Shown here piece by piece: positions 6,594 through 7,535 of a stretch of DNA of 43,730 nucleotides. Each line of letters opens with the position of its first letter. The stretch's first letter is position 1. Origin of the DNA: a virus (taxonomy: Duplodnaviria > Heunggongvirae > Uroviricota > Caudoviricetes). Made by a program: the position numbers and the translations under genes. The notes beneath the pieces are model-generated. The model ran no database searches. It was not told where the DNA came from and saw only the letters and a program-made list of their open reading frames with translations. The stretch lies in IMG/VR virus record IMGVR_UViG_646311924_000020. One strand, given 5' to 3'.

Positions 6594-6611
6594 AGGTGGG
6601 TCCTATTTATT
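6579..6611. terminator. bidirectional intrinsic terminator between convergent mnt and lipoprotein gene
   Basis: Hairpin CCCACC-TGAA-GGTGGG (6585-6600) flanked by A6 upstream and TCCTATTTATT downstream; overlaps the mnt stop codon. Confidence 0.5.
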
Positions 6612-7029
6612 AGTCTTGCTTTGTTGATGGTATAAGAGATGCGTTTGCCTCTTTTGGCTTCAAGGTATACATCCCACCATTAAAAGGATCTACAGCAAGC
6701 CAACCAATTAACCCACCAAACACAAGGTTTCCACCAATATACCAGCCATTAGCATTGGCTTTGATTGGCAGGGTTACTGGTTCGTACCCATCCTTTTCCA
6801 TAGTGATCTGGTAGCTCTTTTTGCCAAAATAACTACCATCTGACTTGGCAAGAGTTACTCCTTGCGGGGTCTTACCTTGCGCAACAATCACGCCTGATTC
6901 GTCTTTTACCTTAAAGCTCGCACCGGAAGGATTGCTGTTCACTTGCACAAGCTGCGTTTCGTCACCAACAATAGTTGCGCACCCAGATAACAATATAGCG
7001 CCAGCAACGACGCCAATAATCCTCTTCAT
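6610..7029 (-). CDS. putative lipoprotein (accessory gene)
   Basis: Start placed at internal ATG 7029: MKRIIGVVAGAILLSGC with lipobox LSGC; Gly-rich C-terminal segment (GWYIGGNLVFGGLIGWLAVDPFNGG). Occupies the gp16-mnt interval where P22 has sieA. No family recognised. Confidence 0.6.
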   Translation of the reverse strand: MKRIIGVVAGAILLSGCATIVGDETQLVQVNSNPSGASFKVKDESGVIVAQGKTPQGVTLAKSDGSYFGKKSYQITMEKDGYEPVTLPIKANANGWYIGGNLVFGGLIGWLAVDPFNGGMYTLKPKEANASLIPSTKQD

Positions 7030-7145
7030 ATCAATTTCCATATTTAAAAACCGGAAACATCCTAATGACAAACCATTCAAATGTGAAGTAGGCAAAAGAT
7101 GTTTACTTTTTTCATGGTATCCTGCTCAAAACTAAGGAGGTTGGC

Positions 7146-7535
7146 GTGAAGCAATTTCTTACTGCTATGTTCTTATTCATATCTTTTGGGGCTACAGCAG
7201 AGTGCTGGGTCGTTGGAGATATGCGCGGAATAAGCTATTCAGAACGAAATAATTTCCATCCGGAAGAAGATGGTTTTAGTGGAACATTCATCATTAAGAC
7301 AAACGGTGAAGATGCCAGCATCACATATTCTGGGACAGATGCGGGCGGCATGGCTTACAAAGCATTGTCTAAAAACTCCATCATAGGAATCGGCGCGAAT
7401 GGCGAAACTCAACGCGTTATCGACTCATGGGTAATACATCCTACTGGAACAGTTTTAATGTCAAAAACCATTTCCGGTTATGGAAATATGGATTCAACCA
7501 AAGCTTTTGTTGGAAAAGTAAAAAGAAAATGTTAG
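7146..7535 (+). CDS. putative secreted protein (accessory gene)
   Basis: 129 aa, GTG start 9 nt after AAGGAGG; N-terminal signal peptide MKQFLTAMFLFISFGATA. Divergent from the lipoprotein gene across a shared 116 bp promoter region. No family recognised. Confidence 0.55.
   Translation: MKQFLTAMFLFISFGATAECWVVGDMRGISYSERNNFHPEEDGFSGTFIIKTNGEDASITYSGTDAGGMAYKALSKNSIIGIGANGETQRVIDSWVIHPTGTVLMSKTISGYGNMDSTKAFVGKVKRKC

Follow-up and report, generated by a model that had tools for sequence, protein, structure and literature searches.

In phage P22, the superinfection-exclusion gene sieA belongs to the series mnt–orf59a–t_mnt–P_sieA–sieA (plus strand)–gene 16 (minus strand), in which sieA converges on gene 16. 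It is a prophage-expressed gene that encodes a multi-pass inner-membrane protein and is found in only 22 of 66 P22-like phages (PMC10883804); what fills its slot in the two thirds of sequenced P22-like phages that lack it has so far been undescribed. A second described system is Hex of phage 434, named for ‘heterologous exclusion’: P22 is kept out by Salmonella lysogens of lambda-imm434 but not by those that are hex- (as cited in PMC3564112). This decades-old phenotype is mechanistically unexplained. Here, a stretch of DNA of 43,730 nucleotides (IMG/VR record IMGVR_UViG_646311924_000020, hereafter ‘the window’) is analyzed, in which a P22-like prophage without sieA carries two divergent genes between mnt and an ejection gene of the gp16 family, one for a lipoprotein of 139 amino acids and the other for a Hex-like secreted protein of 129 amino acids. 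The best explanation as a whole, to which a probability of about 0.55 is assigned, is that these genes are two independent envelope morons, both expressed in the lysogen, with the separate roles proposed below.

The initial annotation of this locus, made from the letters alone, had described two open reading frames (ORFs) diverging from a 116-bp spacer at the position of sieA, and both points agree with the present analysis. Window positions 6300–7700 are 100% identical to P22-like (Lederbergvirus) prophages of Escherichia coli O111:H- 11128 and other strains, and the Hex-like gene, preceded by the upstream region of sieA, is located in the interval from gene 16 to gene 9. When the DNA upstream of P22 sieA was aligned to window 7060–7160, near-identity was found over the 49 bp that end with the GTG start codon, in the form ATGTT(T/A)ACTTTTTTCATGGTATCCTGC(T/A)CAAAACTAAGGAGGTTGG(C/T)GTG, while the coding sequences of sieA and of the Hex-like gene are unrelated past this shared GTG. 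Since the upstream DNA, the Shine–Dalgarno sequence and the GTG are the same, the sieA ORF has been exchanged precisely at its start codon; as judged from the alignment, the coding sequence of sieA has been replaced in place by that of the Hex-like gene. The start block overlaps part of the P_sieA annotation in the P22 record. It also precedes an hkcB-like gene (for a protein with a transmembrane (TM) helix and a coiled coil) in phage epsilon34, and in phage Emek it is shared from TGGTATCCT onward, before the Hex-like gene. The sieA start region can be viewed as a fixed expression socket in which unrelated genes for envelope proteins are swapped exactly at the start codon. A tblastn search of the window with P22 SieA (type A) as query gave nothing below E = 9, and the SieA motif FxRYPxEAxxFNK is absent from both proteins when their sequences are read. 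The likeness to SieA is one of position, orientation convergent with gene 16, upstream DNA, Shine–Dalgarno sequence, GTG start and targeting to the envelope. In contrast, SieA and the Hex-like protein share no sequence similarity, P22 has no counterpart of the lipoprotein, and the multi-pass SieA differs in kind from a soluble beta-barrel with a signal peptide and from a beta-sandwich with a lipobox. Because sieA is prophage-expressed and the start block is common to both genes, the Hex-like gene would be expressed in the lysogen as well.

It had been stated that neither protein matches a recognized family, and here the initial annotation has to be corrected: the lipoprotein belongs to phrog_6823 and has a PEGA-like domain, and the secreted protein is, by its sequence, a member of the 434 Hex / Sf6 gp38 family (phrog_2651). 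The phrog_2651 profile is matched by the Hex-like protein and by 434 Hex with E-values of 2.9e-61 and 1.4e-58, respectively, and the two proteins are 27% identical over 133 columns by BLASTP (E = 3e-12). Profile searches yielded an unbroken series of homologs from 91% to ~25% identity that includes the 434 Hex cluster. In tblastn searches of phage genomes, near-identical copies were found in Salmonella phages Emek and ST-35, and full-length matches of 27% identity correspond to the gene just downstream of cI in 434, Sf6 (gene 38), HK446, HK633 and Sf101. The family counts 115 members in a word-indexed search and 204 cluster representatives in a full HMMER scan, the latter all of ~125–135 amino acids and all unnamed, with Serratia, Vibrio and Affinibrenneria as known sources. 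A distant member (P0250, Affinibrenneria salicis) bears the UniRef label ‘Organic solvent tolerance-like N-terminal domain-containing protein’ (LptA/LptD-like), which is probably automatic.

The protein of the window resembles 434 Hex and its counterparts in Sf6, HK446, HK633 and Sf101 in length, signal peptide, x-C-W-(I/V)-V mature start and C-terminal STKxFVGxV..C motif, and all are encoded by prophage genes at places of lysogen-expressed genes. It differs in belonging to a separate clade, 25–30% identical to the 434 clade, and in its genetic setting: 434 hex, annotated as ‘repressor protection protein’, lies downstream of cI in the PRM operon, whereas the Hex-like gene follows the sieA start region in the interval from gene 16 to mnt, is 29 kb away from cI and does not have the arrangement for co-transcription from PRM. 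Elsewhere, genes of the family follow cI at once and overlap it, do the same with mnt in another P22-like prophage, or adjoin cI; these are all sites of lysogen-expressed genes, cI and mnt being lysogeny repressors. Since members of the family are also found after mnt, linkage to cI is a trait of the 434 clade and not of the whole family.

Targeting of both proteins to the envelope, also foreseen in the initial annotation, agrees with their predicted export signals, namely a conserved lipobox in one and a signal peptide in the other. The Hex-like signal peptide is MKQFLTAMFLFISFGATA, with cleavage predicted before EC (type I, ATA↓EC). RefSeq, through the Prokaryotic Genome Annotation Pipeline (PGAP), starts the gene at ATG 7167 and gives 122 amino acids, which drops the charged start of the signal peptide; homologs keep the longer N-terminus and thereby support the GTG at 7146. 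Residues C20, W21 and C129 are invariant in 51 sequences. Among the 84 full-length members of the family, 83 have exactly two cysteines; the first is residue +2 of the mature protein as predicted, and the second is 0–6 residues from the C-terminus. The residue before the first cysteine is D, E, N, Q or K in 65 of the 84, which is incompatible with a lipobox. 434 Hex itself (L004:1501-1905) has a type I signal peptide (…TTSANS↓ECWIV) and the two conserved cysteines. Structure prediction, which had been suggested as a check, gave for the Hex-like protein a confident, soluble, small all-beta barrel (AlphaFold2, predicted local distance difference test score (pLDDT) of 91.5), the strands of which are hydrophobic on one face only when the sequence is read against the strand assignments of the model.

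Variants of the Hex-like protein are often truncated or frameshifted (P0132, P0134, P0136-P0142). In P0132, which stands for 642 sequences, the sequence past …TISGY is unrelated, so that the C-terminus with the last strand and Cys129 is lost, which may point to decay or to a junction formed by recombination or insertion. Such variants, together with a ratio of nonsynonymous to synonymous substitution rates (dN/dS) of 0.85 for the Hex-like gene relative to its near-identical Emek copy, a value that rests on very few changes, would fit ORFs in decay, or ones that fill a recombination hotspot without having a function. However, both window copies are intact, the dN/dS of the lipoprotein gene relative to epsilon34 is 0.04, motifs are invariant over 48 (lipoprotein) and 51 (Hex-like) diverse homologs, the fold models are confident and a lipoprotein orthologue is strongly transcribed, so that mere filler is scarcely credible.

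Because of the homology to Hex, the precise replacement of sieA and the export signals, periplasmic superinfection exclusion is considered the best-supported function of the Hex-like protein, held at slightly less than even odds. Made in the lysogen from the sieA-type start block, the protein would be exported by the Sec pathway and would act in the periplasm as a soluble, probably disulfide-stapled beta-barrel of ~110 residues, excluding superinfecting P22-like or other heteroimmune phages, most likely by interfering with the trans-periplasmic conduit built by the ejection proteins.

The main rival for this function is the published role of Hex related to RecA. Spontaneous RecA-dependent induction is lowered by Hex (it is 30-fold higher in a hex deletion), the sHex fragment acts in vitro as an inhibitor of repressor cleavage (434 and P22), and full-length Hex, when over-expressed, is lethal ‘for puzzling reasons’ (PMC3564112). 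Accordingly, the Hex-like protein could be a cytoplasmic factor that shields a LexA-like repressor from RecA-stimulated autocleavage and lowers spontaneous induction, with no part in envelope exclusion; its membership in the 434 Hex family is in favor of this view, as is the S24-type repressor of the window prophage. Yet the cleavable signal peptide and the two cysteines kept across 83 of 84 family members point to export, and the gene occupies the sieA slot, unlinked to cI. Exported proteins are often lethal when over-produced. The lethality of full-length Hex, and the fact that sHex begins at ECWIV, exactly the predicted mature N-terminus, are in tension with a purely cytoplasmic mechanism, which is an observation rather than a refutation; the accessible parts of PMC3564112 make no mention of a signal peptide of Hex, and the mechanism published there is cytoplasmic. 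A cytoplasmic protector of the repressor is therefore judged improbable for the Hex-like protein.

The two genes had also been regarded as a pair forming one module, a view that the survey of genomes does not bear out. Of the 5,426 complete E. coli genomes surveyed, 311 have one or both genes: the two are adjacent in 45, and only one is present in 266. The two-gene arrangement is conserved at 97–100% identity in these 45 genomes and in 21 IMG/VR loci. Phage epsilon34 has the lipoprotein with the hkcB-like gene and Gally has it with a different lipoprotein (GALLYPH_13), both without the Hex-like gene, while Emek has the Hex-like gene amid unrelated ORFs and no lipoprotein. The slot was further surveyed in 75 P22-like IMG/VR loci that carry the lipoprotein (L024-L098). 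Its neighbor is the Hex-like gene in 21 loci, the Gally-type lipoprotein in 17, the hkcB-like gene in 12, a second TM and coiled-coil protein of 109 amino acids in ~11, small membrane proteins of 62 or 75 amino acids in 6 and nothing in ~7. The slot cargo thus amounts to at least six unrelated genes, each for a membrane or exported protein, and starts ~120 bp upstream of the lipoprotein gene at a mostly near-constant distance (GALLYPH_13 is slightly closer). The type of cargo tracks the type of the adjacent gp16: Hex-like cargo accompanies the gp16 type of the window in 18 of 21 loci, hkcB-like cargo a gp16 type of 42–51% and Gally-type cargo one of 34%. This correlation may reflect plain linkage or functional coupling.

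Since they travel separately and have varied partners, the lipoprotein and Hex-like genes are two independent moron cassettes in the hypervariable region that gene 16 and mnt flank. An obligate two-component module, in which the lipoprotein and a periplasmic partner would be co-regulated from a shared divergent promoter region, could be read from the divergent arrangement around the spacer and its conservation in the 45 genomes and 21 loci. It is already largely refuted by the distribution and very improbable, given the one-gene carriers, the diversity of lipoprotein partners (a Gally-type lipoprotein, two kinds of TM and coiled-coil proteins, two small TM proteins or none), the unrelated neighbors of the Emek gene, the Hex-family members that adjoin cI or mnt without a lipoprotein, and the siphovirus homologs of the lipoprotein without a Hex-like neighbor.

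The lipoprotein begins with MKRIIGVVAGAILLSG followed by CATIVG, with the lipobox L14-S15-G16-C17 and alanine at +2. Over 48 homologs there is no variation at C17 and A18 and hardly any at G16. Alanine at +2 suggests outer-membrane sorting under the Lol rule of E. coli, and the protein is probably anchored in the outer membrane. It matches phrog_6823, a family of unknown function, with E = 6e-86 and has 728 homologs; Escherichia phage Gally has the identical protein, the identity to epsilon34 gp15 is 97.8%, and tblastn of phage genomes found the family in 5 phage records only. The match to Pfam PEGA (PF08308) is sub-threshold (17.5 bits for a gathering cut-off of 20.8, E = 0.0038), and the predicted fold is compatible with a PEGA beta-sandwich: the model consists of a confident beta-sandwich (~24–93, PEGA/transthyretin-like), a helical hairpin of low confidence (95–117) and a confident beta-hairpin (121–131).

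The most conserved part of the family is NGWYIGGN(L/I)VFGGLIGWLxVDPFNGGMYTLxP. This segment (NGWYIGGN..GGLIGW..VDPFNGGMY) falls outside the PEGA model, and its sole named match, to NCBIfam LEPBI_I2678, is weak (E = 6e-5, far below cut-off). A glycine-zipper C-terminus had been proposed, which is a fair description of the glycine-rich hydrophobic hairpin 95–117 with its motifs G95xxxG99 and G105xxxG109, although the Pfam glycine-zipper models give no match to the protein at E ≤ 1. A plain transmembrane anchor at 95–117 was considered and rejected as the simplest reading: the beta-hairpin 121–131 comes after it, its hydropathy is marginal (best 19-residue Kyte–Doolittle window ~1.1 by hand calculation, against ~1.6 for a typical TM helix) and the segment is the most conserved. 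This conservation argues for a functional surface or an element of oligomerization or membrane insertion over a simple anchor, and the hairpin probably dips into the membrane leaflet or drives oligomerization. For either protein of the locus, no curated Pfam or NCBIfam family was found beyond the sub-threshold PEGA and LEPBI_I2678 matches; profile searches of PDB sequences gave nothing meaningful, and Foldseek against BFVD gave no significant viral relative. Literature searches by accession or locus tag of the two proteins found no paper, and a search on PEGA domain, lipoprotein and prophage found nothing relevant.

The lipoprotein is a recurrent moron of podovirus and siphovirus prophages. 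Siphovirus prophages of E. coli and Proteus have homologs with 68–81% identity, placed between the tail chaperone genes and the gene for the tape measure, and further ones lie between gpI-like and gpJ-like tail genes. In lambda-like prophages (L100:4629-5414, L101:4628-5414), the homolog is preceded by a signal-peptide protein of 93 amino acids (MKKFLMALVLLLPVFANA, cleaved before QK…), with which it possibly forms a second envelope moron pair. The family is also chromosomal outside prophages, in Enterobacter and one other genome (L104:5001-5390, L106:5001-5558). The Enterobacter member is located between aldehyde dehydrogenase and TehB-like genes, near srfB, and the member in a metagenome-derived genome has 185 amino acids with a C-terminal extension. 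These chromosomal members suggest a host origin of the phage gene. Carriers of the lipoprotein include O111 enterohaemorrhagic E. coli (EHEC) and adherent-invasive E. coli (AIEC) strains.

Expression in a lysogen, another suggested check, can be read for the lipoprotein from prophage Gally of AIEC LF82, the identical gene of which (LF82_139, GALLYPH_14) is strongly transcribed. Values come from RNA sequencing (S1 Table of PMC9928086) and are given as log2(fpkm + 5) (fpkm, fragments per kilobase per million mapped reads), with two replicates a sample; samples BLB and MB6 are defined in that paper, and the assignment of B1 and B6 to Dulbecco's modified Eagle's medium (DMEM) and of MB1 to 1-h macrophages is deduced from the table legend. 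LF82_139 reads 6.2 / 4.8 in BLB (lysogeny broth (LB), stationary phase), 9.8 / 10.2 in B1, 10.5 / 10.2 in B6, 11.0 / 11.0 in MB1 and 9.4 / 9.5 in MB6 (THP-1 macrophages, 6 h). In the same table the adjacent injection gene reads 3.6–4.2 and the C2 repressor 8.9–12.0; of the Gally genes, the C2 repressor alone stands above LF82_139 in the DMEM and macrophage samples. Since the lipoprotein gene is high while the injection genes are at background, its transcription from the prophage is autonomous and conditional. The divergent GALLYPH_13 (L016:4381-5420), another lipoprotein gene with the lipobox LLAGC, reaches log2 8–11 in the DMEM and macrophage samples, in which mnt, the tailspike gene and GALLYPH_17 of Gally are also up. 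A PhoP box in the spacer was considered as an explanation of macrophage induction and dropped, only one half-site-like TGTTTA being seen by eye. Morons were scored in PMC9928086 in LB only, with a 5-fold cut-off, leading to the conclusion that Gally is without morons; a lipoprotein moron that is widespread, occurs in O111 EHEC and AIEC LF82 and is strongly transcribed in macrophages was thus left uncounted in the one study that measured it.

With its own candidate promoter and terminator, the lipoprotein would be strongly expressed from the prophage, above all in DMEM and macrophages, and would modify the envelope, either blocking phage DNA delivery or improving the fitness of the host envelope. 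An envelope role is well supported. As to its purpose, host fitness in DMEM- or macrophage-like conditions is put forward tentatively, and exclusion is doubtful. More broadly, one or both genes of the locus could be lysogenic-conversion factors for host fitness (envelope stress, serum, macrophage survival), comparable to Bor or Lom and with no anti-phage role. The rise of the LF82 gene from log2 ~5–6 in LB to 9.4–11 in DMEM and macrophage samples is in favor of this, as are the chromosomal copies, the occurrence in prophages of podoviruses and siphoviruses, which differ in receptor and delivery system, and the O111 EHEC and AIEC carriers. Pulling the other way are the exclusion phenotype reported for a Hex homolog (PMC3564112) and the place of the Hex-like gene in the sieA expression slot, in addition to the siphovirus site of the lipoprotein gene (taken up below) and the lack of any virulence or fitness phenotype on record (by the accession-based literature search). 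Host fitness as the sole purpose is therefore rather unlikely.

Several points weigh against two independent lysogen-expressed envelope morons with the roles proposed here. For the Hex-like protein, identity to 434 Hex is only 27% and function may differ between clades; within the family, phenotypes are on record for 434 Hex alone, and the sole biochemical study of Hex places its action in the cytoplasm, as a block to the RecA-stimulated cleavage of two repressors, of 434 and P22 (PMC3564112). Transcription of the Hex-like gene in the lysogen is presumed from the shared sieA block, and the annotated P_sieA has a -35 part that the window does not conserve. For the lipoprotein, the Gally gene in LB stationary phase is merely ~3-fold over prophage background and no Gally gene is listed as a moron in PMC9928086. 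The upstream DNA of Gally is only partly similar to that of the window and differs beyond ~-43; it has mismatches in the -10 region of the promoter candidate and a different -35. The chromosomal members and the phages with quite different DNA-delivery machines make a general envelope function a better fit to the lipoprotein than a specific anti-phage block. Finally, PADLOC-DB gave no match at E ≤ 1 for the lipoprotein or the Hex-like protein (nor for 434 Hex). Exclusion, which the initial annotation had ventured beside lysogenic conversion, is plausible for the Hex-like protein and may or may not hold for the lipoprotein.

The genes themselves belong to kinds described before: one is of the Hex family, and the other codes for a moron lipoprotein in the known ‘ant moron’ hotspot (PMC2629481). 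No mention was found in the literature of three points: that sieA is exchanged for unrelated envelope cargo exactly at the start codon, that export features run through the whole Hex family, and that the lipoprotein is strongly and conditionally expressed. One cargo of the socket being a homolog of Hex, the locus offers a concrete route to how Hex-type proteins work and to whether they do so in the periplasm. A wider and rather unlikely generalization, which takes in 434 Hex and Sf6 gp38, would be that the Hex family as a whole consists of beta-barrels that are exported by Sec, stapled by a disulfide and active in the periplasm against the genome delivery of P22-like phages. Such a mechanism would differ from that of SieA in the inner membrane, the two genes being interchangeable cargo of one start region, and the cytoplasmic anti-RecA role would be secondary or an artefact of the signal-less fragment. 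The family phrog_6823 would, likewise, be a new envelope effector (exclusion or macrophage survival) that phages captured from a chromosomal gene and spread through podovirus and siphovirus prophages.

The features of the locus are given in Table 1. A terminator between mnt and the lipoprotein gene had been predicted, and one is found at the expected place: the mnt stop codon lies inside the loop of the hairpin, which on the minus strand begins 8 nt past the lipoprotein stop, with a 9-bp GC-rich stem followed by the U-run UUUUUUGU (-14.5 kcal/mol, z = -2.45). The homologous hairpin of epsilon34 is annotated as a rho-independent terminator. With sar intact, the immI region (mnt–arc–sar–ant) looks complete. 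The window holds no second copy of the lipoprotein or Hex-like gene. Its left end (1–2929) comprises a host dacC-like gene for a D-Ala-D-Ala carboxypeptidase (PBP5/6-like), then the acyltransferase-3 gene of the prophage, which is probably an O-antigen acetylase for lysogenic conversion.

Table 1. Features of the window around the lipoprotein and Hex-like genes, in order of position
Feature	Position	Strand	Basis or remark
Prophage acyltransferase-3 gene	2021-2929		adjoins tailspike gene
Tailspike gene	2970-4907	-	local gene order
ant	5086-6087	-	local gene order
sar antisense RNA	6022-6089		Rfam RF00262, 95.6 bits; intact
arc	between sar and mnt		local gene order
mnt, Arc-family maintenance repressor	6342-6593	+	DNA 98% identical to P22 mnt; RefSeq: Arc family DNA-binding protein
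Bidirectional intrinsic terminator hairpin	6584-6601	both	terminator scan and fold; common to the convergent mnt and lipoprotein genes
Lipoprotein gene, 139 amino acids	6610-7029	-	ATG at 7029, stop 6610-6612
Spacer between the divergent genes	7030-7145		116 bp
Sigma-70-like promoter candidate of the lipoprotein gene	7059-7087	-	TTCACA-17-TAGGAT; consensus scan only, 9/12 matches
sieA-type expression block ATGTTTACTTTTTTCATGGTATCCTGCTCAAAACTAAGGAGGTTGGCGTG	7100-7148	+	near-identity to DNA upstream of P22 sieA
Candidate extended -10 TGGTATCCT	7115-7123	+	inside the sieA-type block
Shine–Dalgarno AAGGAGG	7134-7140	+	5 nt before GTG at 7146
Hex-family gene, 129 amino acids	7146-7535	+	GTG start
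P22 gp16-family ejection gene	7560-9401	-	RefSeq; convergent with the Hex-like gene; other ejection genes beyond
S24-type repressor gene	36296-36997		29 kb from the Hex-like gene

Among other known systems, the lipoprotein invites comparison with the exclusion lipoproteins of temperate phages, such as Cor, Llp and Ltp. Like Cor of phi80/N15, Llp of T5, Ltp of TP-J34 and Lpp021/Lpp010 of mEpimmI phages, it is small, prophage-encoded and located within or beside a structural cluster, and the mEp Lpp proteins have been found to exclude phages (PMC11893012). Unlike them, it combines a PEGA sandwich with a glycine-rich hairpin, features not described for these proteins, and it shares no homology with them: the sole match to the Cor family (phrog_1119) is the signal peptide (residues 2–21, E = 0.0034), the mature part being unmatched. 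Its fold kin are the beta-sandwiches of the PEGA (PF08308, a match below cut-off), transthyretin-like and CnaB types. In siphovirus prophages, its homologs of 68–71% identity lie between G/T-like chaperone genes and an HK97-type tape-measure gene, which we take to be the position of HK97 gene 15, the likeness being one of position. HK97 gp15 is reportedly an inner-membrane exclusion moron encoded between tail chaperone and tape-measure genes.

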